Source of the DNA: an uncultured Gammaproteobacteria bacterium
GTDB lineage: Bacteria > Patescibacteriota > Patescibacteriia > SG8-24 > DYFX01
DNA length: 55,632 nt
NCBI GenBank assembly: GCA_964404275.1
Contig: CAYOJH010000003.1
Span: 16,879 to 72,510 of the forward strand
Direction: 5' to 3'
The notes under the pieces were generated by a model. The model had not been told where the DNA came from. It saw nothing but the letters and a program-made list of their open reading frames with translations, and made no database searches. Position numbers and translations under genes: made by a program. Of this stretch, positions 3,164-42,113 are shown in pieces. The number at the start of each line of letters is the position of its first letter. The first letter of the stretch is position 1.

Positions 3164-4677
3164 CCTGGGAGCACTACACGCCCGAACAGAAAAAACGCCA
3201 TCGCCGTCTCGAATTCGTGCCGGCCACGCTCGTCTGGATCACGCTGATCGGCGCGGTGACGTTGTCGTTCGCGGATCCGATTTTGGCGGTCTATTTCATC
3301 ATCGCCTTCGACTTGTATTGGTTCTTCCGCGTGCTCTACTTCGTGATCTTCCTGACGATTTCCTGGCGGCGCCATCGCGGCGCGCTCGACGTCGATTGGG
3401 AAACGCGCTTGGCGGCGACGCCGGGTCATGAACGGCTTCGCCATCTCGTCTTCCTGCCCACCTACAAGGAAGAGCTTGAAATCCTGAGAAACACGTTCCG
3501 CAGCCTGATCGCCGCCAAGGTCGATCCGAAAACGATGATCGTGGTCCTGGCGGGCGAAGAGCGCGCCGGGCGCGAGGCTTTCCTGGCGCGCGCGGAAGCG
3601 ATCCGCGCCGAATTCGGCGAGCGCTTCCTGCGCTTCCTCGTGACCGTGCATCCTTCCGACGTCGTCGGCGAGATCGCCGGCAAGGGCTCGAACCTGCACT
3701 ACGCCGGACCGATTGCGCAGAAGACGATCGACGAATTGGGCATCCCGCATGAAGACGTCATCGTCTCGACCTTCGATGTCGACACGATCGCGCATCCGCA
3801 GTACTTCGCGCATCTCGCCAAGACCTATCTCGACACGCCCGATCGGACCCGCGCCTCGTATCAGCCCGTCGTGCTCTATTCGAACAACATCTGGGACGCG
3901 CCGGCGGTCGTGCGCATCGCCGCCTTCGGCACGACCTTCTGGCTCTTGTCGGAACTCGTGCGTCCCGACCGCCTGTTCACGTTCTCGTCGCACAGCATGC
4001 CGCTCAAGGCGCTGGTCGACGTCGGCTTCTGGCAGCGCGACGTCGTCTCTGAGGATTCGCGCATTTTCCTGCAATGCTTTCTGAAGTACGACGGCGACTA
4101 CCGCGTCGTGCCGCTCTACGTGCCGGTCTCGATGGACGCCGTCATGGCGCCGAAATGGATCGGCAGCCTCGTCAACCTCTACAAGCAGCAGCGCCGCTGG
4201 GCCTGGGGCGTCGAGCATTTTCCGTACTTGATGATCAACTTCAAAGCCAATCCCGCGATCCCGCGGAAGAAGCGCCTGGCGACGCTCTGGAACTTGTCGG
4301 AAGGCATGTACACCTGGGCGACGGCGCCGCTCTTGATCTTCCTGCTCGGCTGGCTGCCGCTCAACATCGCGAAATTCACCGGCCGCTCCGAAATCGTTTT
4401 CCAGAACGCGCCGACGACGCTCCAATGGATCATGACGTTCGCCATGCTCGGCGTCTTCGCCTCGGCGATTTTGTCCTTGCCGCTTCTGCCCAGCCGTCCG
4501 CGCCACAAGAATTTCTACGTCAACTTCGTGATGCTGCTCCAGTGGCTGCTCTTGCCGGTCACCTTCATCCTGTTCGGCGCGATTCCGGCCATCGACGCGC
4601 AGACGCGCCTGTTCCTGGGCCGGCGCCTCGGCTTCTGGGTGACGCCGAAGACGCTGGTCGAAAAGCAAGACGCCTAG
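3148..4677 (+). CDS. Multi-TM processive GT2 glycosyltransferase (cellulose-synthase-like)
   Basis: PTYKEE, FDVDT (DxD), SED and QQRRWAWG (QxxRW) motifs. 2 N-terminal and about 3 C-terminal TM helices. Confidence 0.85.
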   Translation: MDRALTWEHYTPEQKKRHRRLEFVPATLVWITLIGAVTLSFADPILAVYFIIAFDLYWFFRVLYFVIFLTISWRRHRGALDVDWETRLAATPGHERLRHLVFLPTYKEELEILRNTFRSLIAAKVDPKTMIVVLAGEERAGREAFLARAEAIRAEFGERFLRFLVTVHPSDVVGEIAGKGSNLHYAGPIAQKTIDELGIPHEDVIVSTFDVDTIAHPQYFAHLAKTYLDTPDRTRASYQPVVLYSNNIWDAPAVVRIAAFGTTFWLLSELVRPDRLFTFSSHSMPLKALVDVGFWQRDVVSEDSRIFLQCFLKYDGDYRVVPLYVPVSMDAVMAPKWIGSLVNLYKQQRRWAWGVEHFPYLMINFKANPAIPRKKRLATLWNLSEGMYTWATAPLLIFLLGWLPLNIAKFTGRSEIVFQNAPTTLQWIMTFAMLGVFASAILSLPLLPSRPRHKNFYVNFVMLLQWLLLPVTFILFGAIPAIDAQTRLFLGRRLGFWVTPKTLVEKQDA

Positions 4678-4679
4678 CT

Positions 4680-5735
4680 ATGGCCAGGATTTCCGTCCAC
4701 ATCGTCGCCTGGAATCACGCGCGCGTCCTGTCCGACGCGCTCGAATCGCTGCGCGCCCAGACCTTCAAGGATTTCACGCTGACGGTCGTCGACAACGCTT
4801 CGACGGACGGCTCGGTCGACGTCGTGCGCGGCGTCTTTCCCGACGCGACCGTGCTGCGCAATTTCAAGAACCTCGGTTTCAGCCGCGCGCACAACCAAGC
4901 GGTCGAGTTGGCGCGGAATCGCTGGGCCAGCGACGACAAGAAAGGGCTGAGCGCGATCGATCGCTACGTGCTGGTGATGAATCCGGATCTGATCCTGACG
5001 ACGCACTTCCTCGAATACCTGGTGAACGGCGTCGACGGGCGCGCCGAGATCGGCAGCGCGTGCGGCAAGCTGCTCAAGGTCTATCCGCGCGAAGACGAAG
5101 AAAGCGAGCCGAAATTTTCCAACCTGCTCGATTCGGCCGGGCTCAGCATGCGCAAGGATCGCCGCGCCGCCGATCGCGGGGCGGGGGAAACGGATGGGCC
5201 GGCCTACGCCGAACCGGCCGAAATTTTCGGCGCGTCCGGCGCGCTGGCGCTGTATCGCGCCGAAGCGATCGAAGCGCTGCGTGAAGCGGACGGCGAATTT
5301 TTCGACGAAGATTTCTTCGCTTACAAAGAAGACGTCGACGCGGCCTGGCGGCTGCGCTTGCTCGGCTGGAAAGCGGCCTATGTGCCGTCGGCCGTGGCCT
5401 ACCACTACCGCGGCACCGGCGGCTCCGAAAAAGCCGGCCTGTTCGCGCTCTTCCGCCGTCGCCTGGGCCGCTCGCGCCTGGTCAATCATCTTTCGACGCG
5501 CAACCATCTCCTCTTGCTCGCCAAGGACGACGACGCCGTCAATCAGCTGATCCACTTTCCCTGGATCCTCGTCCAGGAAATCGGAAAATTTTTGGCGACG
5601 CTGCTGCTCGCGCCTCGCGCACTCGCGGCCTACGTCGAAGCGTTGAGGCTGCTGCCGAAGATGTGGAAGAAGCGCGCGCTGCTGCGGAAGAAGCGCAAGA
5701 CGTCTCCCAAGGACATTCGGATCTGGTTCACATGA
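4680..5735 (+). CDS. GT2 glycosyltransferase (WbbL/rhamnosyltransferase-like)
   Basis: ISVHIVAWN, VVDNASTDGS, NLGFSRAHN, NPD and FFAYKEDVD motifs. Start 2 nt after the upstream stop. Confidence 0.9.
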   Translation: MARISVHIVAWNHARVLSDALESLRAQTFKDFTLTVVDNASTDGSVDVVRGVFPDATVLRNFKNLGFSRAHNQAVELARNRWASDDKKGLSAIDRYVLVMNPDLILTTHFLEYLVNGVDGRAEIGSACGKLLKVYPREDEESEPKFSNLLDSAGLSMRKDRRAADRGAGETDGPAYAEPAEIFGASGALALYRAEAIEALREADGEFFDEDFFAYKEDVDAAWRLRLLGWKAAYVPSAVAYHYRGTGGSEKAGLFALFRRRLGRSRLVNHLSTRNHLLLLAKDDDAVNQLIHFPWILVQEIGKFLATLLLAPRALAAYVEALRLLPKMWKKRALLRKKRKTSPKDIRIWFT

Positions 5736-6559
5736 GTATGGATGTCTCGATCATCATCGTGAATTACAAAACGCGCGGCATGGTCAAGCAGGGACTCAAG
5801 AGCCTGCGCCGCGCCGGAGTGCGTTTGAATTACGAAGTCTTCGTCGTCGACAACGCCTCGAACGACGGCTTACCGGAACTCGTGCGCGCGGAATTTCCCG
5901 AAGTCCGACTGATCGCGCTTCAAAAGAACGTCGGGTTCGCCGCCGGCAACAATGCAGCGATCAAGAAGGCGAAAGGAAAATACGTCTTCGTACTCAACCC
6001 CGACGCGCTGGTGAATCCCGGCGCGATCGAAGCGATGTTTTCGTACATGGAAGCGCACCCCGAGATCGGCGTGCTCGGTCCCAAGCTCGCGCATCCCGAC
6101 GGCAGCCGCCAGGAATCGGCGCACCGCTTCCCGACGCCCTGGATCCCGGTCTACCGCCGCACGCCACTCGGCACGCTGCCTTCCGCCAAAGAGGAAATGG
6201 ATCGCTATGCCATGCGCGACGTCGCCTTCGCCGCGCCGACGGACGTCGATTGGATCGAAGGCGCCGCCATGTTCGTGCGGCGCGCCGCGATCGACGAGGT
6301 CGGTCTGTTCGACGAGCGCTTCTTCGTGTATTTCGAAGATGCCGACTGGTGCCGCCGCTTCTGGCTGAAAGGCTGGAGAGTCGTCTATCATCCGGGCATC
6401 GAGATCATCCACTACCACCGCCGCGAATCGGCCGACACGCTCTGGTTCCTGGCCCCCTTCACCAACACCGTCGCGCGCATCCACATCATGAGCGCGATCA
6501 AATACTTCGCGAAGTGGAAAGGCCAAGCGCCGCCGGAAAAGAAAAAAGCCGCTCCCTGA
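5732..6559 (+). CDS. GT2 glycosyltransferase (WbbL-like)
   Basis: DVSIIIVNY, VVDNASND, NVGFAAGNN, LNPDA and FFVYFEDADWC motifs. Alternative start at 5738. Confidence 0.9.
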   Translation: MSMDVSIIIVNYKTRGMVKQGLKSLRRAGVRLNYEVFVVDNASNDGLPELVRAEFPEVRLIALQKNVGFAAGNNAAIKKAKGKYVFVLNPDALVNPGAIEAMFSYMEAHPEIGVLGPKLAHPDGSRQESAHRFPTPWIPVYRRTPLGTLPSAKEEMDRYAMRDVAFAAPTDVDWIEGAAMFVRRAAIDEVGLFDERFFVYFEDADWCRRFWLKGWRVVYHPGIEIIHYHRRESADTLWFLAPFTNTVARIHIMSAIKYFAKWKGQAPPEKKKAAP

Positions 6560-6572
6560 TCGGGGGCGGTTT
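6542..6572. terminator. Intrinsic terminator between convergent genes
   Basis: A6-GCCGCTCCC-TGATC-GGGGGCGGT-TT. Confidence 0.6.
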
Positions 6573-6576
6573 GCGT

Positions 6577-7074
6577 TCAGCGGTTCCAGTCTTCGTAGGC
6601 ATAGCGGCCGTCGGCGGATTGGCGCGTGAGGAATCGCTCGACGGGTGCGCAGGGCACGACCGTTTCCCCGCGTTCGTGGCGCGTGGTCAAGACCGCGTAG
6701 CACACGCCGGAAACGCCCGGTTGGATGTCATGGAAGTACCAGATGTGCTCGGTCATCCAGTCGAGCTTGCGATCCAGGTCGGCCGCGACGCTTTCGCACG
6801 GAGCGAGCGCAGCGTGCAGGCCATCGCGGCTGAACGCGACTTCATAGCAGAAGCCGGTGCGCGGTTCCCGGATGAAGTACGTGTCGTCCGTCACGTCATC
6901 CATGAAGTCCTGTTGGGTTGCGGTGAGCGATCTGTACAACATGTGGGCGACGCCGAACCCGCAAAGCGCGCAGGTCGCGATGATCAGGCCGGTGACGATC
7001 GTGCGGAGGCGCGGGCGGGCGGGCGTGACGGCCAGGGCGGGATCGAGAGCGAGACGGGAATCGGTGGGCAGCAC
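6577..7074 (-). CDS. Orphan single-TM protein with two tandem Cys-pair domains
   Basis: GTG start 6 nt after AAAGGA. TM IVTGLIIATCALCGFGVAHML. Repeats YFIREPRTGFCYEV...APCESV and YFHDIQPGVSGVCYAV...VPCAPV. Confidence 0.6.
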   Translation of the reverse strand: MLPTDSRLALDPALAVTPARPRLRTIVTGLIIATCALCGFGVAHMLYRSLTATQQDFMDDVTDDTYFIREPRTGFCYEVAFSRDGLHAALAPCESVAADLDRKLDWMTEHIWYFHDIQPGVSGVCYAVLTTRHERGETVVPCAPVERFLTRQSADGRYAYEDWNR

Positions 7075-7136
7075 GGCGGGTCCTTTCTGTGAGGGAACTT
7101 GGCCAAGTGAAGCATGCCGCGCCCGCTTCGTCAAGG

Positions 7137-7145
7137 TGGTATACT
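7137..7145 (+). promoter_or_regulatory. Extended -10 promoter (TGG-TATACT) 6 nt before GTG 7152; leaderless-type
   Basis: Read directly from the sequence. Confidence 0.6.
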
Positions 7146-7151
7146 GGCCTC

Positions 7152-9143
7152 GTGGAACCGCACGCGCATAATCTTTTAGGGGAGCATACGCCTCCGCGCA
7201 AAAAGAACGGGAAGCATGTCCTCTACGGCCTGCTCGGATTTTTGGGCGTCGTGATCATGATCGCCGCGGCGATCGCCGTGCCGGCCTTGGCGGCGGCGCG
7301 CGAAGTCTACGCGCAGGCGCTGGCCGGGCGCGACGCGATGTTCAGCGCCAAGACGGCGGCCGAACAGCTCGACTTCGCGACCGCCTCTGCGCGCCTCGAC
7401 GAAGCCGCGCAGCGTTTTCAGGCCGCCGAGAACGCAGATGCGAAACTGAAGACCGTCGAAGCACTGCCGTTTTTCCGGAAAGATCTCCAAGGCGTCTCGG
7501 ATCTTCTTGAAGGCGGACGCGAAGCCTCGCTGGCGCTCAAGCAGGCGATCGACGTCGGCGCCGATCTGGTCGGCGTCTTGAAGAGCGGAAACGCCGCGGT
7601 CGGAAGCGTGCCGGATCTTTCGACCGACGCGCGATCGGTCTCGTCGCTTTCGCGCGAAGAGAAGCGCGTGCTCCTCCAGAATCTTTCGGAAGCGCCGGAT
7701 CGGCTGGCCATCGCGCGCACCTCGCTTGAAAAAGCGATCGCGGCTTGGGATCGCGTGCCGAAAACGCCGCTGACCGAAGGCGTGCTGGCCTCGATCGCGC
7801 CGTACAAGGCGCAGCTCCAAACGCTGCACGATCTGATGAACAAGGATCTGTCGCCGCTCGCGATGCTGCCGTCGATCCTCGGCTACCCGGCGCCGAAGAC
7901 GTATCTCTTTTTGATGCTCAACAACACGGAGCTCAGGCCCGGCGGCGGCTTCATCGGCACCTACGGCATTTTGAAAATCCAGGACGGCGAGATCGCCTCG
8001 TTCTTCACGGATGATATTTACGCGATCGACGGCCCGTCCGAGTCGTACATGCACGAAACGCCGCCCGCGCCGCTCGCGAAATATCTGCGCGTGCCGAGTT
8101 GGTACATGCGCGACGCGAACTGGTCGCCGGATTTCGCCGTCTCCGCGCTGAACGTCGAGAAGTTCTATCACCTTGAAGGCGGCAAGGAGCAGATCGACGG
8201 CGTGATCGGCATGACGCCGACCGTCATCTCGAAGCTCTTGGCCATGACGGGACCGATCACGATCGACGGCTCGACCTTCACGGCGGACAATGTGGTCGAC
8301 GAGCTTGAGTATCGCGTTGAAGTCGCGTTCTGGAACAACGGCACGCCGGAAGCGCAGCGCAAGGACGTGGTCGGCAAGCTTGGACAGGAGCTGATCGGGC
8401 GGATGTTCAGCACGAAGCTCTCGAATCTTTCGCAGCTGGCCGACATCGCGCAGCAGTCGCTCGCCGAGAAGCAACTCATGGCCTCCTTTCATGACTCTTC
8501 GCTGGAAGCCTTCGCCGACGGCAGCGGCTGGTCCGGACGTTTCCGCACCGGGCCGGACGATCAGCTGGCCGTCATCGACGCGAACCTGGCCTCGCTCAAG
8601 ACCGACGCGGTCATGGACAAGAAAATTTCCTATACGCTGAAACCGGATGGCGATTCTTGGATCGCGCACGCCGCGATCACCTACAAGAACAACGGCCACT
8701 TCAATTGGAAGACGACGCGCTATCGCACCTACACGCGTTTTTACGTGCCGCTCGGCTCGACCTTCATCAAGGGCGACGGGATGATGGTCGATGATAAGCT
8801 CAACGATCCGAAGCGGCGGCCGGGCACGATCGACGTGGATACGGATCTCGGACACGCCGTTTTCGGCGGCTTCATTTCCGTCGAACCGGGGGAGACGCGC
8901 ACGCTTTCGGTCGAGTATCGCGTCTCGGACGCGGTCGCGCGGCTCATCCGAAGCAACGCCTACCAGCTTGACGTCCAGAAGCAGCTCGGCACCCTTGCCA
9001 ACGGTTTGACGCTCGATCTCGATTTTGGTAAGAACGTAGCGCGCGCGACGCCCTCGGAACCGCAAAGCCAATGGGGCGATTCGCACTACCGCTTGTCCAC
9101 GGATCTCCGCACCGATCGCCAGTTCTCGGTCGGCCTCCAGTAA
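7152..9143 (+). CDS. DUF4012-domain membrane-anchored protein
   Basis: N-terminal TM, helical region, then YLFLMLNNTELRPGGGFIGTYG, RDANWSPDF and IDGVIGMTP. GTG start inferred from the promoter position. Confidence 0.85.
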   Translation: MEPHAHNLLGEHTPPRKKNGKHVLYGLLGFLGVVIMIAAAIAVPALAAAREVYAQALAGRDAMFSAKTAAEQLDFATASARLDEAAQRFQAAENADAKLKTVEALPFFRKDLQGVSDLLEGGREASLALKQAIDVGADLVGVLKSGNAAVGSVPDLSTDARSVSSLSREEKRVLLQNLSEAPDRLAIARTSLEKAIAAWDRVPKTPLTEGVLASIAPYKAQLQTLHDLMNKDLSPLAMLPSILGYPAPKTYLFLMLNNTELRPGGGFIGTYGILKIQDGEIASFFTDDIYAIDGPSESYMHETPPAPLAKYLRVPSWYMRDANWSPDFAVSALNVEKFYHLEGGKEQIDGVIGMTPTVISKLLAMTGPITIDGSTFTADNVVDELEYRVEVAFWNNGTPEAQRKDVVGKLGQELIGRMFSTKLSNLSQLADIAQQSLAEKQLMASFHDSSLEAFADGSGWSGRFRTGPDDQLAVIDANLASLKTDAVMDKKISYTLKPDGDSWIAHAAITYKNNGHFNWKTTRYRTYTRFYVPLGSTFIKGDGMMVDDKLNDPKRRPGTIDVDTDLGHAVFGGFISVEPGETRTLSVEYRVSDAVARLIRSNAYQLDVQKQLGTLANGLTLDLDFGKNVARATPSEPQSQWGDSHYRLSTDLRTDRQFSVGLQ

Positions 9144-34443: not shown

Positions 34444-34526
34444 ATTGACCGGCGCGACGGACGCGCACTACAGTGGAGTATCGCTCATTTATCGCACGTC
34501 CAACCGCCTTTCGCAAGGAGTGCCGC

Positions 34527-35270
34527 ATGTCCATCAACTATCCGGGCGTCGTTCTCGCGGGCTTTCATCTGCTGATCGATCCGCCCGCGCGCTACGCGGC
34601 CAAGATCGATCGCGAGCGGAAGCCGAACGGGCGTATTCGGACCTTTCATCTGCGCATCGTCGCGGGCGAACAGGAGTCCTCGGCGCAGCTTTCCGTCAAC
34701 CTCGGAAAAAAGCGCGTCGATTGGAATCGCACGACGGGCTGGCTGCTCGGTCAACAGGATTATGGTTCGGGCAGCCTCGGCGTCTTGCTGCTCTCGTCGC
34801 CGTTCCTGCTGCTCGGCTCGCCGTACATCATCGCGCGCCGGAAGCTCTATCATTGGAGCGAAAAGGGGCAGGCCATGTCGCGTCACGCGACGGCGCTGCT
34901 CGAAGCGCTCGAGGGCCAGCTGACCGACGACGAAAACGATCTTCTGGTCGAAGTCTTCCGAAACGAATACGCGCATGCCGTGAAGATGCGAAGCCAAGTC
35001 GACCTGTTCCAGGCCAAGGCGGTGCTGTCTGCCGCCGCGCTCGATGTCTACGTCGCCCCGCTTTCGGGAGGCGGAACGCACGAGCAATGGACCTGGAGGG
35101 ATCGCGACGACGAGGTCGTCGGCGAGGCCCGGTTCGAACGGACCGATGACGCTGCGCCCGTCGTGCGCGTGCGCGGTTCGCGTTTTCGCGGCGGCAAGGC
35201 GGCGATCTTGATGGAGTGCTTCGCCAGCCGCGAGATCTCCCGCTTCGGCGACAACCTGGATCCGGAATGA
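34527..35270 (+). CDS. Orphan hypothetical protein with central hydrophobic segment
   Basis: AAGGAG SD. Promoter TTGACC-18-TACAGT (34445-34474). LGVLLLSSPFLLLGSPYII segment. Confidence 0.6.
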   Translation: MSINYPGVVLAGFHLLIDPPARYAAKIDRERKPNGRIRTFHLRIVAGEQESSAQLSVNLGKKRVDWNRTTGWLLGQQDYGSGSLGVLLLSSPFLLLGSPYIIARRKLYHWSEKGQAMSRHATALLEALEGQLTDDENDLLVEVFRNEYAHAVKMRSQVDLFQAKAVLSAAALDVYVAPLSGGGTHEQWTWRDRDDEVVGEARFERTDDAAPVVRVRGSRFRGGKAAILMECFASREISRFGDNLDPE

Positions 35271-35276
35271 GCGTCG

Positions 35277-35332
35277 AACGGCCGCCCTGCGGCCGTTTTT
35301 TCATTGACAAACGGCGGATTTTTCGGTAGACC
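35277..35332 (+). promoter_or_regulatory. Terminator fused to the next promoter (TTGACA-17-TAGACC)
   Basis: AACGGCCGC-CCT-GCGGCCGTT-TTTT-CA-TTGACA(35304)...TAGACC(35327). Confidence 0.75.
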
Positions 35333-35350
35333 TTGGGCGGGGAGGAATCG

Positions 35351-37516
35351 ATGAGAACGCTCTTTTTGGTCCTGATGTCCTGGGTCGCGCTGGCGGGCTG
35401 TGGCTCGAAAGACGCCAAGACGCCTGCGAAGCAGGCCGCGCCGGTCAGCCAAACGCCTGCGCCGGTCAAGACGACGCGGGCCGTGCGCCTGTTCGTCGCT
35501 CCGTTTTCCGACGACGGCAAGAACGGCCTGGACTATTTCTCGATCGGCCTCGCGCTCGCCGCGAATGCCCGTTTCGAAGAAGCGTCCTACGACCGCGCCT
35601 TCATCAAGGCGATGGCCGACGCCGGATTCGCGTTCGAAGTCGTGACGGGTCCGCAGGTCTTGCCGGAAGATTCCGCCAAGCTCGCGGCGACGCGCTCCGA
35701 CGACGGCGCGCTCGCCGATCTCCACGCGGCGGCCAAGCGCGCCGGCGCGACGCACGTGCTGACCGGCGCCTACGGAGGCCGCGTCGAAAAGTGGCGGCTC
35801 GAAGTCGCGCTCTACGAAGTCGGTCCCGACGGATTGAAGGAAATCGCCAAGGCCGAGGATACGCGCAAGATCTACGCCGGGAAGAAGGACACGCCGAAAC
35901 CCGAGCGTCCGGGCATCCAGATCGGAACCGTGCACGAGATGCTCGGCGCGCTGATCGGCCAGGTCTTCGTCTCGGCGAAGCTCCCGCTGCCGGCGGATGT
36001 CGTCGCGGCGCTTTCGACGCCGGCCACGCCCGACATCGTCTCCTTCATCAACCTGTCGCGCGCTTACCGCGCGCTGCTCGCGGACGAAGAGGACGACGAG
36101 ACGAAGATGGACAACGCGCTTGGCTTCGCGCAGAACGCGGTCCGCATCTGGCCCGACTACCAGATCGCCCGACGCCTGTACGCCTGGCTGCTCTGGCAGA
36201 CCGGAAGCCCGGAAAAAGCGCGGCTGCATTTCCAGGAAGCCCTGAAGTGCGAAGCCGACAAGGCCAAGAAAGGGCAGTGCGTTCCCGACGACATCCGCTC
36301 GTTCGTCGCGCTCGGCCGCATCGATCTCGCGACCGATCAGGCCGACAGCGCGCGTCAGGAACTCGAAGTCGCCGCCAAGCTGCGGCCCGGCGACGCGAAC
36401 GTCCAGTACTGGCTCGGCGCCGCGTTCGCCAAGCTCGGTCAGATCGGCCAGGCCGTCAAAGGCTACGAGCTGAGCCGTTCGCTCGATCCGAACAACCTCG
36501 AAACGCGGCGCGCGCTGGCCAGCCTCTATGCCGGACAGAAGCGTTACGCGGAAGCGGTCGTCGAGCTCAAGGTGGTGGTCGATCGCGATCCGAAAGATCC
36601 GACCGCCGTCTACCTGCTCGCGGCTTGCGCTCGCGCCGCGGGTGACATGCCGGCCGCGCTCGCGGCCTACGATCTCGGAGCAAAGCGCTTTCCCGACGAC
36701 CAGAAATTCCGCGCGCTGCGGAAAGACGCGGTCGACGGCGTCGGCGCCGAGCTGGCCGGACGGATCGCCCAGGCGGGGGATCTGAGAAAAACGCTCGAAA
36801 ACCTCCGCGCGGAATTCCAGGACGCCGTCAACGACGGCACCTGGCAGCTCCTCAATCGGAAAAAGGAAGACGCCTGCGCCGACGGCAACGCCGGATCGGA
36901 CGAGCTCCTCGCGAAAGCGAAAGGCAAAGCGTACGAAAACGGCGGCCTCGCGTTCCAGGAACGCATCGCCTTGATCCGCGCGGCGCTCAAGGACGGCAAA
37001 GGCCTCGCGCTCACGCCGGACGAAAACGCTTCCGCGGAAGACCTGCTCCTGTATGAACAGAGCGCGCTGCGCGACGATCGCGAGATGCGCACGGCCTTTG
37101 AAGGGACGTTCAAGCCGCAGCTCGAAAGGCTCTGCGGCGCGATCGATCCCGACAAGATCGCCGTCGCGAAGATCGAAGACGTCCGCGCTCGGAACGGCCA
37201 GCGCGTCGTCTCGATGCCGGAACCGCCCAAGCGCGACGCGTCCGGCATCTCGCCGGTCGTGCCGCCGGACGTGGTCGACAACAAGACCTGGTACGTCGAG
37301 AACGACACGAAACAGGAGATCATCCTGATCCTCGACGGCAAGCCGCTCGAACCTTCCGTGCCGCCGCGGCATGAAGGCGGCAAGCCGATGCCGTTCTCGG
37401 CCCAAGTCGGCAACCACGAGCTCTGCCACGTGCCGAAAGGGGTCGATCCCAAATGCCTCGGCTTCAACGTCAGGACCGTGCAGATCGACGAAGGCTTGAT
37501 CTATCACGTCCAATAG
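35351..37516 (+). CDS. Lipoprotein: Pro/Ala linker, TolB_N/CsgG-like alpha/beta domain, TPR array, C-terminal beta domain
   Basis: Lipobox VALAGC. VRLFVAPF...AAKRAGATHVLTGAY...RLEVALYEV. About 7 TPRs. GGAGG SD. Confidence 0.75.
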   Translation: MRTLFLVLMSWVALAGCGSKDAKTPAKQAAPVSQTPAPVKTTRAVRLFVAPFSDDGKNGLDYFSIGLALAANARFEEASYDRAFIKAMADAGFAFEVVTGPQVLPEDSAKLAATRSDDGALADLHAAAKRAGATHVLTGAYGGRVEKWRLEVALYEVGPDGLKEIAKAEDTRKIYAGKKDTPKPERPGIQIGTVHEMLGALIGQVFVSAKLPLPADVVAALSTPATPDIVSFINLSRAYRALLADEEDDETKMDNALGFAQNAVRIWPDYQIARRLYAWLLWQTGSPEKARLHFQEALKCEADKAKKGQCVPDDIRSFVALGRIDLATDQADSARQELEVAAKLRPGDANVQYWLGAAFAKLGQIGQAVKGYELSRSLDPNNLETRRALASLYAGQKRYAEAVVELKVVVDRDPKDPTAVYLLAACARAAGDMPAALAAYDLGAKRFPDDQKFRALRKDAVDGVGAELAGRIAQAGDLRKTLENLRAEFQDAVNDGTWQLLNRKKEDACADGNAGSDELLAKAKGKAYENGGLAFQERIALIRAALKDGKGLALTPDENASAEDLLLYEQSALRDDREMRTAFEGTFKPQLERLCGAIDPDKIAVAKIEDVRARNGQRVVSMPEPPKRDASGISPVVPPDVVDNKTWYVENDTKQEIILILDGKPLEPSVPPRHEGGKPMPFSAQVGNHELCHVPKGVDPKCLGFNVRTVQIDEGLIYHVQ

Positions 37517-37571
37517 CTCCCGCTTCCCGGGGGCTTTTTTCATTGACAAAATGGCTCGCCGGATGTAGAGA
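37515..37571 (+). promoter_or_regulatory. Terminator fused to the next promoter (TTGACA-17-TAGAGA)
   Basis: AGCTCCCG-CTTCC-CGGGGGCT-TTTTT-CA-TTGACA(37543). Confidence 0.7.
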
Positions 37572-37643
37572 ATGAGGATGTTCCGGGGCGGAAAACCCCG
37601 GAAAAAACGCACGTTCACATCCTTCGATCGGAGTTCAAACGTC

Positions 37644-40600
37644 ATGCTGCAATGGCTGAAACGCCTGCCTGAACGCGTTCTGTTCGCGGTCTTGGTCGCG
37701 GTCGCCTACCTGTCGATTGCGGCGGCGCTTCTCCTCGTCCACTACGCCCTGCTGCGCTTCGGCGTGCCGCACTGGCTGGCCTTCTTGGCCGCCATCGGCG
37801 TCTTCCCGGTGACCTACGTCGCCTGGAAGGTCGTAAAGGGCTTGGTCTGGATCTTGACCCGCTTTGCGGCCTGGCTCTGGAAATTCCGCGCGTGCCGCCG
37901 GACGACCTATGTCGGTTTGGTGGCTGCCGCCGCTCTGGTGGCGGGCTGGAATCTCCACGCCGCCGGCGATAACGCCTGGCTCGGCCTCGGCTGCGAAGCG
38001 ATCGGCGTCTTCGCGATCTTGGTCGCGGCCTTGCTCGCCAATCCGCCCGAGCGCTGGCTCGTCCGGCTGCGTCGCTTTCGCGTGTCCGCCGGATACGCCG
38101 GGCTGTTCAACGCGATCCGCGTGGCGGCCTGGCTGCTCGCGATCCTCTTGATCGACGTCTGGCTGCGCGCCACGGTGCGCGGCCTGATCGGCGACAATTG
38201 GATCGCGATTCCCTTGAGCTGGCTCGAGCGGATCCGCATCCCGCTCGCGCTCCTGCCGCCGCTCGTCTTCACGATCGCGGCCCTGCTCGCGCGCCCGCCG
38301 TATCTCCGGCGCGCCGCGCCGCGCTGGGTCTACGTCGTGAAGCGCACGCGCGTGCCGGTCCGCGAACGCTTCCATCACATCTTCGGACGGATCCCGCTGT
38401 ATCGGCTGGACCTCATGCCGAAGATGGTGGAGTTCACCGCGCCGGACGGACGCGTCGGCCATGCCGGCGAGCGCTTCGTCTTCGCGCGCATGATCTGGAC
38501 CGGCCTGGCCCTCACGACGTTCGCGTCGATGATCGGTCTCGCCTTCGCGGCCGATTGGTTCCTGCCGAGCGTGCCGAAAGATCTCTCGAGCGTCGAGCAG
38601 TATCAGCCGCCCGTCGCGACGGTCGTCTACGACCGGAACGGCGCGGAGATGTGCCGCTTCACGGTCGAGAACCGCACCTACGTCGATCTTTCGCAGATCC
38701 CGGTGGAAGTCCAGGAGGCGTTCATCGCCGCCGAGGACCAGCACTTCTGGGAGCACGATGGCATCGATCCGAACGGCATCGTCCGCGCGGGCGTCGCGAA
38801 CTTCCAAAGCGGGGAGACTCGCCAAGGCGCTTCGACGATCACTCAGCAGGTCATCAAGCAGGTCGTGCTCAAGGATTCATCCAAGAGCATGAAACGCAAG
38901 CTGACCGAGCTCGTCCTGGCGCCTCGCTTCGAGACGCAGATGACGGACATGCTGGGCAGCCGCCACGCGGCCAAGGAAAAGATCCTCGAGATCTACCTGA
39001 ACCACGTCTATCTCGGCGACGGCAACTACGGCGTCGAAGCGGCCGCCCTCGGCTACTTCGGCAAGCACGCCAAGGACCTGACGCGGGCGGAAGCGGCGAT
39101 GCTCGCCGCCATGCCCAAAGCGCCGGCCCTCGACGCGCCCGACAAGCACTTCGCGCGCGCCAAGGAACGCCAGCGCTACGTGCTCGACCGCGAGGTCGAG
39201 CTCGGGATGCTGACGTCCTCCGAACGCGACGCGGCTTGGAAAGAGCCGATCGTCACGATCCGCCGGACGCATTCTTCCAACGTGGCGAACGCGCCCTACG
39301 CCTGCGAAGAGGTCCGCAAGTTCGCCGAACGCCAGTTCGGCTACGAAGCGGTCTACAAGCAGGGACTCGTCATCCGCACGACGTTCGATCTCCCGCTTCT
39401 GCGGAAGGCGCAAGCCTCGATCCGCTACGGCCTGCTTGATCTCGAGCGACGCCTCGGCTTCGCCGGTCCGGAAGGGCACGACAAGAACGCCAGCGATCGC
39501 TGCGAGGAACCCGAATGGGTCGACGACGAAGCGATCGAAGCGAACGCCCGCGTTATCGCGCGCGACCGCTCTTCGATCGCGCTGTGCGTGCGCGGCAACC
39601 GCGTCCGGCTCGATCCGGACGACGTCGCTCGCGTGCAGCAATGGGAACGCGCCAAGCCCGGCCGCGTGCTCCGGCTTGGCGATCTCATGACCGTCCGGCT
39701 CGAAACGCGCGATCTCGGCAAAGGCAAGACCGAGCGCGTCGCGCTGACCGCCCGCCGCACCGGCGGCAAAGGTCATCCCGAAGCGCTGCAAGCCGCGCTG
39801 GTGGCGATCGACCCGAACGACGGGGAGATCCGCGCGATCGTCGGCGGCTACGACTGGAACGAAAGCCAGTACGACGCCGCCACGCAGGCGCACCGGCAGA
39901 CCGGCTCGTCGATCAAGCCCTACGTCTATCTGACGGCGCTCATGAACGGCGAGACGGTCGTCTCGACCGTGGAAGACGCGCCGATCTGCGTGCCGACCGC
40001 TTCGGGCGAATGGTGCCCGAGGAATTACGACGGGCCGCACGTGACGCAAGTCTATTACGGCCTCGTCGACCTGATGACCGCGCTGGCGAAGTCGCTCAAC
40101 TCGGTCTCGGTCCGCCTGACCCTCGAAGTCGGCCTCGACAAGGTGCTCGGCACGATCCGCGCGCTCGGCGTGAGGTCGCCGATCGAACGGGTCTATCCGG
40201 TCGCCGTCGGCACGCCGGAGCTCACGCTTCGCGAGCATGCGGCCGGATACGCCACGCTCCTTTCGGAAGGACGAGAAATGGCCGTTCAGCACGACGGCGA
40301 TCCGCCCGGCATCTTCGTGAAGAGCGTCTCGGCTTGGGTCCGCGGCCTCGACGGCCGCGTCCAGTTCAAGACGCTGTACGAAGCGCCGAAACGTCCCGAC
40401 GCGCAAGCGGTGCCGAGCGGCGACGCCTACGCCATGATTCATCTCATGCGCGGCGTCGTGCAATTCGGCACCGGCACCAGGGCCAAGAAGCTGCGCAGGC
40501 CGATCGCCGGCAAGACCGGCACGACCAACAGCTTCCATGACGTCTGGTTCATGGGCGGCAGCGCCGATCTCACGGTCGGCGTCTGGGTGGGACGCATGAC

Positions 40601-40871
40601 GCCGACCCCGATCGCCAAAGAGGCGACGGGCGGCGGCGTGGCCCTGCCGATCTGGGAAGCCTTCATGGAATTGGCCTTTCCGGTGCCGAAGAAGGAAGGC
40701 GATCCGTTCGAGACGCCGCCTCGGGATTTCCCGATCCCGAACGACGTCACCTTGATCCTTAACGGCGAAACCGAGGACGGCCGTCCGTCACTCCTGCCGT
40801 TCCAGCGCGGTAAGATGCCCGACGCCTACCTGAAAGCGTCTTCCGGCTTCGGCCACGACGCCTTCGAATGA
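37644..40871 (+). CDS. Class A penicillin-binding protein (PBP1A family) with a multi-TM N-terminal extension
   Basis: GT51 motifs AEDQHF, GASTITQQ, RKLTE and EIYLN. OB-like insert (LRLGDLMTV). Transpeptidase motifs GSSIK, SLN and GKTGT. Confidence 0.93.
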   Translation: MLQWLKRLPERVLFAVLVAVAYLSIAAALLLVHYALLRFGVPHWLAFLAAIGVFPVTYVAWKVVKGLVWILTRFAAWLWKFRACRRTTYVGLVAAAALVAGWNLHAAGDNAWLGLGCEAIGVFAILVAALLANPPERWLVRLRRFRVSAGYAGLFNAIRVAAWLLAILLIDVWLRATVRGLIGDNWIAIPLSWLERIRIPLALLPPLVFTIAALLARPPYLRRAAPRWVYVVKRTRVPVRERFHHIFGRIPLYRLDLMPKMVEFTAPDGRVGHAGERFVFARMIWTGLALTTFASMIGLAFAADWFLPSVPKDLSSVEQYQPPVATVVYDRNGAEMCRFTVENRTYVDLSQIPVEVQEAFIAAEDQHFWEHDGIDPNGIVRAGVANFQSGETRQGASTITQQVIKQVVLKDSSKSMKRKLTELVLAPRFETQMTDMLGSRHAAKEKILEIYLNHVYLGDGNYGVEAAALGYFGKHAKDLTRAEAAMLAAMPKAPALDAPDKHFARAKERQRYVLDREVELGMLTSSERDAAWKEPIVTIRRTHSSNVANAPYACEEVRKFAERQFGYEAVYKQGLVIRTTFDLPLLRKAQASIRYGLLDLERRLGFAGPEGHDKNASDRCEEPEWVDDEAIEANARVIARDRSSIALCVRGNRVRLDPDDVARVQQWERAKPGRVLRLGDLMTVRLETRDLGKGKTERVALTARRTGGKGHPEALQAALVAIDPNDGEIRAIVGGYDWNESQYDAATQAHRQTGSSIKPYVYLTALMNGETVVSTVEDAPICVPTASGEWCPRNYDGPHVTQVYYGLVDLMTALAKSLNSVSVRLTLEVGLDKVLGTIRALGVRSPIERVYPVAVGTPELTLREHAAGYATLLSEGREMAVQHDGDPPGIFVKSVSAWVRGLDGRVQFKTLYEAPKRPDAQAVPSGDAYAMIHLMRGVVQFGTGTRAKKLRRPIAGKTGTTNSFHDVWFMGGSADLTVGVWVGRMTPTPIAKEATGGGVALPIWEAFMELAFPVPKKEGDPFETPPRDFPIPNDVTLILNGETEDGRPSLLPFQRGKMPDAYLKASSGFGHDAFE

Positions 40872-40872
40872 C

Positions 40873-40944
40873 CCCTTCGGCCCTTGCCGGAGGGTTTTTC
40901 TTTGGCCCTACAGGGTTGACAAAACCGCCTTTTTCGTGTATGCT
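40873..40944 (+). promoter_or_regulatory. Terminator followed by promoter TTGACA-17-TATGCT
   Basis: CCCTTCGG-CCCTTG-CCGGAGGG-TTTTTCTTT. TTGACA at 40916, TATGCT at 40939. Confidence 0.8.
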
Positions 40945-41006: not shown

Positions 41007-42113
41007 ATGTCCCAGGAACAGGAACGCACGCCCGTCACGCCGTATCTTCTCGCCATCGTGGGGATCTGCGTCTACGCTTTCCACTACCTCGGAAAGGAAG
41101 AATCGATCGTGCGCGCCGCGCCGGTCGACGACGTGGCCGTTTCCGAACGCGCCGCGCCCGTCGCGACGCCTCCGCTTTCGACGCCCCTGGCCGGCCCGCG
41201 ACGCGTGGTGCTGGTCAGCGTCGACGGCATGTCCTCGGCGCTGGTCGATCGCATGCCGCATCTCAAGCAGATGTTCGTCGATGGCGCCGGCACGCTGAAG
41301 ACCGAGGTGCCGCGCGGGCACACGACCGCGATCTCGCACGCCGTGCTCTTCACGGGCGCAGATCCGTCGGTGAACGGCGTCACGTGCGAACCCGACGAAC
41401 GTCCTTGCAACGGTTTCACGATGCGGAAAGGCCGAGGCTATCACTCCCCGGACTTCCGCTGGACGCCGCTCAAGGTCACGGATACGCTCTTCACCGCCGT
41501 CGAAGCGTCGGGCCACAAAGCCGTCGCCGCCGTGCAGAAGGGCAAACTCGTCGGCTTCTTCCGTCCGAACGGCGATGAGACCGGCATCATCAGCACGAAC
41601 AACACCGCCAGAGTGGTCGAAACCGGCTGCGAGGCGGTCAAGGATGATGACGTGCGCTTGGTCGTCTTGCACTTCAAGATGATCGACGATGCCGGGCACC
41701 ATGCGGGCTGGCTCTCCGATCGGCAGTACCGCGAAGCGGATACGATCGACGGACAGCTCCAGCAAGTGCGCGATTGCGTCGACCGAGCCAATGCCGCGAG
41801 CGGCAAAGTCTCGACGGTCTTGATCGTCACCTCCGACCACGGCGGCACGCCCGGCGGCGAACATTGCGGACGCAAGTTCGACAATGACGACACTGAACTG
41901 GTGCCCTGGGTCGCTCTCGGCCCCGGCCTCAAGCGAGGCTACGAGATCACGGCGCGTTCCGACGCGCCGACGACCTCGCAAGGCACGCATCCGACGATGC
42001 TGCTCGTCGACACGGTTCCCACGATCCTTGCCCTGCTCGGCCTGCCCGAAACGTCGATTCCGACGCTCTCGAAACAGGCCAAACCCGTCGAAGGGATTTA
42101 CGCGTCGCAATGA
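41007..42113 (+). CDS. Membrane-anchored alkaline-phosphatase-superfamily (NPP/phosphodiesterase-like) enzyme
   Basis: TM, VVLVSVDG, Thr nucleophile region HTTAISH...TG, DDAGH, TSDHGG and GEH motifs. GGAGG SD. Confidence 0.85.
   Translation: MSQEQERTPVTPYLLAIVGICVYAFHYLGKEESIVRAAPVDDVAVSERAAPVATPPLSTPLAGPRRVVLVSVDGMSSALVDRMPHLKQMFVDGAGTLKTEVPRGHTTAISHAVLFTGADPSVNGVTCEPDERPCNGFTMRKGRGYHSPDFRWTPLKVTDTLFTAVEASGHKAVAAVQKGKLVGFFRPNGDETGIISTNNTARVVETGCEAVKDDDVRLVVLHFKMIDDAGHHAGWLSDRQYREADTIDGQLQQVRDCVDRANAASGKVSTVLIVTSDHGGTPGGEHCGRKFDNDDTELVPWVALGPGLKRGYEITARSDAPTTSQGTHPTMLLVDTVPTILALLGLPETSIPTLSKQAKPVEGIYASQ

Follow-up and report, generated by a model that had tools for sequence, protein, structure and literature searches.

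What does a bacterium from a reduced lineage, probably without an outer membrane, do with a lipoprotein built from the same kinds of domain as the outer-membrane activators of cell wall synthases? This question is raised by two genes in a 55,632-nucleotide stretch of DNA (hereafter the window) from an uncultured bacterium that GTDB places in the Patescibacteriota (NCBI GenBank assembly GCA_964404275.1, contig CAYOJH010000003.1). Two long plus-strand open reading frames (ORFs) occupy the region: gene A (35351-37516) and gene B (listed at 37572-40871). Gene A encodes a protein with tetratricopeptide repeats (TPRs), P0001 or protein A, and gene B encodes a class A penicillin-binding protein (aPBP, here simply the PBP) of PBP1A type, P0002, whose residues are numbered from 37572. 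Dedicated aPBP activators (LpoA, LpoB, and LpoP) are known mainly from Proteobacteria, where they are explained as reaching the synthase from the outer membrane. We lean toward the view that the gene A product is the cognate extracytoplasmic partner, either a regulator or a scaffold, of the adjacent PBP1A-type synthase. The G+C content across the window is 62 to 67%, and a search of sequencing runs found the window sequence in groundwater metagenome DNA runs only. Close relatives of both genes come from Patescibacteria, Minisyncoccota, and Candidatus Paceibacter.

Conservation and predicted transcription of the gene pair

At every distinct locus whose downstream DNA could be read (21/21), gene A was followed by the PBP gene, in four flanking contexts and with no counterexample; loci outside these 21 end at contig breaks. 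Within the close clade the PBP gene is always downstream, but the whole 10-kb neighborhood is syntenic there, so adjacency in that clade alone proves little. Loci at greater distance or with other flanks are as follows.

L029, family member P0064 (36% identity to P0001): aPBP gene downstream; downstream flank like that of the window
L030/L031, P0072 (35% identity to P0001): aPBP gene downstream; PUA-methyltransferase gene upstream; two unknown genes, then NUDIX and isochorismatase genes, downstream
L033, P0083 (AT-rich, distant): aPBP gene downstream, cut at the contig end; TrmB gene upstream
L035: PUA-methyltransferase gene upstream, NUDIX gene further downstream
L036: GreA gene upstream, DUF5698 gene downstream

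The pair was also recovered in the reverse direction: starting from two PBPs (P0143 and P0156; 46 to 49% identity), a full-length member of the protein A family was encoded upstream in both cases (2/2; hhalign E = 7e-84 and 4e-81), with new flanks comprising an SNase gene in one and GreA and DUF5698 genes in the other. Because the order is kept at ~35% identity and across four contexts, a functional pairing of the two genes is supported. Pairwise distances of protein A and the PBP are strongly correlated (r = 0.96), the two trees have 8 of 13 splits in common, none of their conflicts is well supported on both sides, and protein A evolves ~1.5 to 2 times faster than the PBP. An initial annotation of this DNA had placed gene A directly upstream of a PBP1A gene and had named conserved adjacency and congruent phylogenies as its tests; the next gene indeed encodes an aPBP whose best solved relatives are PBP1a proteins, and both expectations were borne out.

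One subgroup of distant members (P0078; loci L024, L026, L027, and L028) is uninformative for adjacency, since every one of its contigs, in three independent assemblies, breaks off 42 nucleotides past the stop codon of the distant member. That member has 720 residues and a plain signal peptide, and genes for a 3,515-residue giant protein and an LTD-domain protein lie upstream. The shared contig ends suggest a repeat or a strain-variable region downstream.

A related arrangement may exist outside the Patescibacteria. Beyond the Patescibacteria tiers, the closest labeled PBPs are PBP1As of Myxococcales and Polyangia (40 to 42% identity). One Myxococcales contig (L037), which carries purH and is therefore not a Patescibacteria contig, encodes a PBP1A (6001-8355; 41% identity to the window PBP) divergently adjacent to a gene for a 595-residue secreted protein (4120-5907, minus strand). 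By hhalign, this protein matched the protein A family with a probability of 99.2% over 398 columns spanning the N-terminal domain and the TPRs (82.8% for the N-terminal domain alone). It does not have the C-terminal module described below, and two relatives of it were found. A relationship between this neighbor of a Myxococcales PBP1A and the protein A family is a lead rather than a result, and the proposal in the initial annotation that the genes were acquired as a pair is only weakly hinted at by this single inspected locus with its related N-domain-plus-TPR gene.

Signals between the genes were called as pattern matches for terminators and promoters, and the following were found in and around the pair.

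35276..35298, plus strand: intrinsic-terminator-like hairpin and T-run closing the upstream gene (10 pairs, 7 of them G-C)
35304..35345, plus strand: promoter-like unit and ribosome-binding site (RBS) of gene A (TTGACA at 35304-35309, 17-nucleotide spacer, TAGACC at 35327-35332, GGAGG at 35341-35345)
37515..37535, plus strand: G+C-rich intrinsic-terminator-like hairpin and T-run overlapping the gene A stop codon (hairpin search)
37543..37571, plus strand: promoter-like unit of the PBP gene (TTGACA, 17-nucleotide spacer, TAGAGA; pattern)
37581..37603, plus strand: stem-loop at the start of the PBP mRNA leader, UUCCGGGG..CCCCGGAA (folding energy)
40873..40894, plus strand: intrinsic-terminator-like hairpin after the PBP gene (hairpin search)

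These signals form compact terminator-then-promoter units at 35276-35332, 37515-37571, and 40873-40944, in which a hairpin and T-run lead directly into TTTCATTGACA as the -35 box, followed by a 17-nucleotide spacer and a -10 box of TAGA or TATA type; neighboring genes would thus be insulated within ~60 nucleotides. The TTTCATTGACA motif occurs two to three times in the window against 0.45 expected. A hairpin and T-run followed by a TTGACA box were present in 16 of 16 homologous intergenic regions examined, and in an alignment of 11 close loci the TTGACA (-35) box was invariant and both the spacing and a TATA-like -10 box were conserved. Since a terminator and a promoter lie between the genes in all 16 regions, genes A and B are predicted to be separate transcription units in all loci examined, in agreement, at the level of patterns, with the separate promoters claimed in the initial annotation.

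Could the adjacency be inherited gene order without functional meaning, with protein A an unrelated secreted TPR protein? Separate terminators and promoters would fit such an account, as would the high synteny of the clade genomes over more than 10 kb. However, the pair survives four flanking contexts and divergence to ~35% identity, searches that start from the PBP recover it as well, and a related pair is found in the Myxococcales contig. Moreover, that the order is retained though each gene has its own terminator and promoter counts for pairing. We regard inherited order as very improbable.

The stem-loop in the PBP leader begins a few bases past the -10 box and folds with -14.3 kcal/mol, compared to -5.1 ± 2.2 kcal/mol for shuffled sequences. 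It was found at the same position in 10 other loci (L001, L002, L004, L007 to L011, L014, and L020), and between loci the stem sequences vary while the pairing is kept (UUCCGGGG/CCCCGGAA, UUCCGAGGGG/CCCCUCGGAA, and UUUUCAGGG/CCCUGAAAA). It may be an element for mRNA stability or regulation.

A 265-residue ORF without a family match (34473-35270) lies between a methyltransferase gene and gene A; counterparts of 286 to 295 residues occur in L001 and L004, and none in L002 or the distant loci, which places it outside the conserved gene A/PBP pair. Downstream of the PBP gene, a Phosphodiest gene of the alkaline-phosphatase superfamily (41007-42113) is found in the window-type context and in that of L029 but not in the L030, L035, and L036 contexts.

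Architecture of protein A

Protein A can be divided into a secretion signal, a linker, and five further segments, as follows.

35351..37516, plus strand: gene A, encoding the 721-residue lipoprotein P0001 (ORF translation)
35351..35401, plus strand: signal peptide with lipobox LAGC, Cys17 (translation)
35402..35476, plus strand: linker rich in Pro, Ala, Thr, and Lys, residues 18-42, 25 residues (composition)
35477..36016, plus strand: N-terminal alpha/beta domain modeled with the TolB_N/LpoB/PelC fold, residues 43-222 (AlphaFold2 model, Foldseek)
36017..36733, plus strand: TPR array, residues 223-461 (Pfam, NCBIfam, conservation)
36734..37150, plus strand: bundle of three long helices, residues 462-600, with conserved Cys509, Cys596, and motif ALTPDE (model pLDDT above 90, conservation)
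37208..37276, plus strand: Pro-rich motif MPEPPKRDxSGISPVVP, residues 620-642, predicted disordered (pLDDT below 50)
37280..37513, plus strand: small beta-sandwich, residues 644-720, with conserved G-x-H-x-x-C, Cys692, and Cys702 (model)

The N terminus of P0001 (MRTLFLVLMSWVALAGC) is a signal peptide that ends in the lipobox L-A-G-C and matches the pattern for bacterial lipoproteins, [LVI][ASTVI][GAS]C. In the close clade, where the lipobox is kept throughout, protein A is predicted to be lipid-anchored at the outer face of the cytoplasmic membrane, the same membrane as the PBP. Among distant family members, a few have a lipobox, but most start with a plain signal peptide or a signal anchor instead. 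Because the type of anchor varies across the family, the function of protein A appears to be independent of lipidation. The linker is poorly conserved (mean column conservation of 0.28). Four cysteines (C509, C596, C692, and C702) are conserved across the family, which fits an extracytoplasmic protein.

The family itself appears from sequence searches to be narrow and to retain a single architecture. There are ~24 full-length relatives of P0001 at 40 to 59% identity, and a search of 1.84 billion representatives with an N-domain profile returned 33 clusters, nearly all of 660 to 810 residues and with one architecture. Its best-conserved region is the TPR array, with 35 positions at least 90% conserved in 51 sequences. 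TPR families of Pfam and NCBIfam matched residues 250-460 of P0001 with E values down to 5e-18 (TPR_19, 65.7 bits against a cutoff of 25; TPR_2, TPR_14, and TPR_11 also above their cutoffs). Apart from the TPRs, nothing in P0001 was recognized by Pfam and NCBIfam; weak NCBIfam matches to PilW, Tgl, GltE, PgaA, and YbgF/CpoB were all far under their cutoffs and covered the TPRs only. We considered PA4667, a TPR protein among the PDB matches, as a possible LpoP and rejected it (deposited chains of ~540 residues versus ~259 for LpoP; PMC7267771); its match to P0001 is generic TPR similarity.

Residues 38-236, comprising the N-terminal domain, were cut out and modeled with AlphaFold2 from 12 sequences (P0001 and 11 orthologs; pLDDT 78, pTM 0.79). 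The model returned 25 PDB matches at E ≤ 0.001 by Foldseek, nearly all in one structural superfamily. The top match was the TolB N-terminal domain (E = 1.3e-5). LpoB structures (4q6l, 4q6z, and 2mii) followed with E values of 6e-5 to 5e-4 (probability 1.00, template modeling [TM] score by target of 0.52, 18 to 20% identity), as did PelC and GNA1162 (TM by target 0.54 and 0.55, respectively), CT253, FlgT, a ring structure, and, weakly, CsgG. According to this model, the domain has the alpha/beta TolB_N/LpoB/PelC fold, in which helices flank a central sheet and which is not specific to LpoB. Sequence comparison gave no significant signal of this kind. LpoB was the top match of an N-domain profile against the PDB, below significance (E = 0.076 to 0.18); the LpoB family (PF13036) was not matched by Pfam at E ≤ 1 nor by NCBIfam at E ≤ 0.1; and the profile search of 1.84 billion proteins reached only the protein's own ~700-residue family. 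With no link to LpoB, TolB, or CsgG at the sequence level, the fold comparison is the sole link between them.

The initial annotation had read the protein as a lipobox, a Pro/Ala/Thr linker, a TolB_N/CsgG-like domain, and a TPR array, and had proposed a Foldseek comparison with LpoB and TolB_N. The lipobox at Cys17, the linker at residues 18-42 (with Lys as a further abundant residue), and the TPRs were all recovered, and the proposed comparison yielded a match (E ~1e-5, TM by target ~0.5). For the N-terminal domain, the TolB_N/LpoB part of the assignment stood, and CsgG matched only weakly. The combination of an LpoB/TolB_N-fold domain with TPRs in one lipoprotein is likewise supported by the model, Foldseek, and Pfam.

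The C-terminal third was absent from that annotation. Modeled on 16 sequences (pLDDT 87), it comprises a three-helix bundle with helices of ~35 to 40 residues each (residues 464-595), a disordered Pro-rich motif, and a beta-sandwich. The columns of the Pro-rich motif are invariant or almost so despite the predicted disorder. Nothing significant was found for the C-terminal module in the PDB by sequence, and no fold match at E ≤ 0.001 by Foldseek. A match to the VHL beta-domain (E = 8e-3) was rejected as a generic sandwich match.

This architecture could also belong to an envelope scaffold that serves a different process, for example the export of exopolysaccharide or of a surface layer, or the assembly of pili (compare PelC with the PelB TPRs, or the TPR lipoproteins PilF/PilW/Tgl), and whose gene adjoins the PBP gene because envelope genes cluster. 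PelC (TM by target 0.54), GNA1162, FlgT, and the ring structure match the N-terminal domain as well as LpoB does, the TPRs resemble those of PilW, Tgl, GltE, and PgaA weakly, and in the window-type context envelope genes lie nearby, namely Phosphodiest and one whose DUF6938 matches are weak or faint. Those neighbors, however, are lost in the L030, L033, L035, and L036 contexts with the PBP gene still adjacent; the NCBIfam matches are all far under the cutoffs and confined to the TPRs; and no secretin, porin, or polysaccharide synthase gene is conserved beside gene A. A role as a scaffold for another process is therefore, in our judgment, unlikely, and we return to the reading of protein A as a partner of the PBP.

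The adjacent synthase

The features of gene B are listed here from its probable start.

37644..40871, plus strand: gene B, encoding an aPBP of PBP1A type, 1,075 residues (Pfam, NCBIfam, phmmer)
37644..38558, plus strand: polytopic N-terminal extension with about six hydrophobic segments ahead of the usual membrane anchor (hydropathy)
38655..39191, plus strand: GT51 glycosyltransferase (GT) domain (PF00912, Transgly, 2.8e-57)
39477..39785, plus strand: insert of ~100 residues at the ODD (OB) position of PBP1a, P0002 residues 636-738 (phmmer, conservation)
39795..40667, plus strand: transpeptidase (TP) domain (PF00905, 1.5e-15)
40692..40868, plus strand: conserved C-terminal tail ending ..LPFQRGKMP..GFGHDAFE-COOH (alignment)

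The ATG at 37572 abuts the -10 box, so the most likely start is the ATG at 37644; gene B probably begins there, with an RBS (GGAG, 37630-37633) 10 nucleotides upstream and a product of 1,075 residues. The protein collection contains a 1,075-residue product (P0090) that is 100% identical to the gene B product. Both catalytic domains of an aPBP are present with intact motifs, as read in the translation (EDQHFWEHDG, GASTITQQ, and RKLTE for GT; SSIK, SLN, and KTG for TP). The best solved relatives by phmmer are PBP1a of P. aeruginosa and A. baumannii (4oon, 1e-94; 3udf, 4e-89). Among NCBIfam models, PBP_1a_fam (TIGR02074) scored best, with 493.4 bits, just below its cutoff of 508.75, and the PBP_1b model gave 306 bits against a cutoff of 718.

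The N-terminal hydrophobic extension appears to be a variable, clade-specific addition. Its length is ~300 residues in the window clade, ~290 in L029, and ~150 in L030 and L033, and the Transgly domain accordingly starts at residue 288 in L029 and at residues 142 to 154 in L033 and L030.

The insert between the GT and TP domains is flanked by the motifs R-x-G-[FY]-x-G-P-E (R-x-G-F-x-G-P-E in the window) and Q-x-A-L-[VI]-x-x-D (Q-A-A-L-V-A-I-D). It is conserved within the clade (72% mean column identity), and the phmmer alignments to 4oon and 3udf run straight across it. PBP1a carries an OB-fold ODD at the matching position (PMC8536351). PCB_OB (PF17092) did not match gene B at E ≤ 1, hhalign of the insert against the ODD sequences of 4oon and 3udf aligned a 20-residue flank only, and profiles of the insert alone, at clade level and broader, gave nonsignificant PDB matches (an S17 OB protein at E = 0.32; lipoyl domains at per-domain E ~1 to 5). 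Of the OB-like insert proposed in the initial annotation, then, an insert of ~100 residues at the ODD position holds, and an OB fold for it is a candidate assignment.

The C-terminal tail has the general form ..[FY][QK]RG.[LMV]P.., a short spacer, and an acidic or aromatic end in loci L001 to L037, across all three identity tiers. Most close-clade members finish with DFGxGAF[DE] (the window PBP with GFGHDAFE), whereas PBP1As of distant Patescibacteria and of Myxococcota finish with [DE]x[VS]F or SPF.

A possible aPBP cofactor and its relation to known systems

If protein A is the cognate partner of the synthase, it would bind the PBP, and several features suggest where. TPR domains often hold C-terminal peptides. 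High conservation of the TPR array argues for one fixed ligand, and, given this common use of TPRs, we propose that the array's groove would hold the conserved PBP tail (..DFGxGAF[DE]-COOH). The LpoB-like domain or the Pro-rich motif could contact the noncatalytic insert between the GT and TP domains. Binding would stimulate or position glycan polymerization and cross-linking, in analogy to LpoA, LpoB, and LpoP, with protein A acting as a co-anchored or wall-retained cofactor. With protein A and the PBP on one membrane, such a cofactor would not sense wall pores from the outer membrane, unlike the mode proposed for the Lpo proteins. The use at a host-contact site suggested in the initial annotation found no support in these data.

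Protein A could instead bind the PBP as a brake or coordinator, as CpoB and TolB do, restraining or timing the synthase or linking it to division or to a wall hydrolase. The TolB N-domain fold among the top Foldseek matches, together with TPRs of the CpoB/LpoP type (PMC7267771), recalls Tol-associated regulators; YbgF/CpoB is among the weak NCBIfam matches, and separate promoters would let the ratio of the two proteins be tuned. On the other hand, neither Tol-Pal genes nor an outer membrane is expected in this lineage, and the sequence does not tell activation from inhibition. We consider a brake or coordinator rather improbable.

Several observations weigh against protein A as a dedicated partner of the PBP. 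Close-clade synteny leaves only about four truly independent contexts, the sequence signals speak against cotranscription of the two genes, and the Myxococcales link comes from one locus, where hhalign gave the N-domain a probability of ~83%. Across the family, the lipid anchor is not conserved. Sequence membership in the LpoB, LpoA, and LpoP families fails by Pfam, NCBIfam, and profiles. TM scores of the N-terminal domain are modest (0.36 by query, ~0.5 by target), the domain resembles TolB or PelC at least as closely as LpoB, and proteins with the TolB_N/PelC/CsgG fold have many unrelated functions. On the side of the synthase, the PBP is without UB2H, the docking domain of LpoB, and the OB fold of the insert is a candidate by position only.

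More tentatively than the pairing itself, we suggest that protein A may be the first of an undescribed family of aPBP cofactors for the PBP1A-type synthases of Patescibacteria, combining an LpoB/TolB_N-fold domain, TPRs, a helical bundle, a Pro-rich docking motif, and a beta-sandwich, located on the same membrane as the synthase or retained in the wall, and with a shorter relative in Myxococcota. Our literature search found no description of such a protein in Patescibacteria. If this is true, Lpo-like control of aPBPs would extend beyond the outer-membrane lipoproteins of Proteobacteria, having arisen either by independent assembly of the same domain types or by cotransfer with the PBP. A conserved partner in a reduced lineage, probably without an outer membrane, would suggest a wider distribution of aPBP cofactors and their independence of such a membrane. 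In addition, it would assign a role to a 700-residue conserved family annotated merely as "TPR repeat protein" and provide a defined two-protein system from uncultured organisms that could be expressed and assayed in vitro.

Each known system shares some of these features. In LpoB, a disordered linker leads to a TolB_N-like globular domain, and the docking site is UB2H of PBP1B; TPRs are found in LpoP and CpoB (PMC7267771). The TPR-like repeats of LpoA serve as a spacer, and this activator works through the PBP1a ODD (PMC7267771, PMC8536351). Protein A resembles LpoB as a lipoprotein with a flexible linker, a TolB_N-like alpha/beta domain, and an aPBP partner. LpoB, however, is an outer-membrane-anchored protein of ~200 residues that binds PBP1B at its UB2H domain, whereas protein A has 721 residues with TPRs and extra modules, a linker of ~25 residues, no known outer membrane in its lineage, and a PBP1A-like partner without UB2H. 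LpoA is likewise a TPR lipoprotein paired with a PBP1A-type synthase that bears an insert between GT and TP (PMC8536351, PMC7267771). Its C-terminal docking domain (LppC, PF04348), in contrast, is unmatched in protein A by Pfam, the C-terminal model of protein A being a helical bundle and a beta-sandwich, and the gene B insert has no sequence similarity detectable by hhalign to the solved ODDs of PBP1a.

In LpoP and CpoB, a TPR module similarly serves as an interaction surface in aPBP regulation, and LpoP, also a lipoprotein, has a disordered linker (PMC7267771); these proteins differ in being short, with tandem TPRs only, in having PBP1B as partner, and in belonging to Proteobacteria, and their similarity to protein A is generic to TPRs. 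PelC, the TolB N-terminal domain, CsgG, FlgT, and GNA1162 share the N-domain fold, and many of them are envelope lipoproteins, but they form export rings or belong to Tol-Pal in diderms and have neither a fusion to TPRs and a C-terminal module nor a link to a PBP gene. As a structural analogy, PelC together with the PelB TPRs serves equally well, but no export genes travel with the protein A family, and the PBP gene always does. By these comparisons, protein A appears to reuse the building blocks of the Lpo proteins and yet to stand outside the LpoA, LpoB, LpoP, and CpoB families, onto which it maps loosely.

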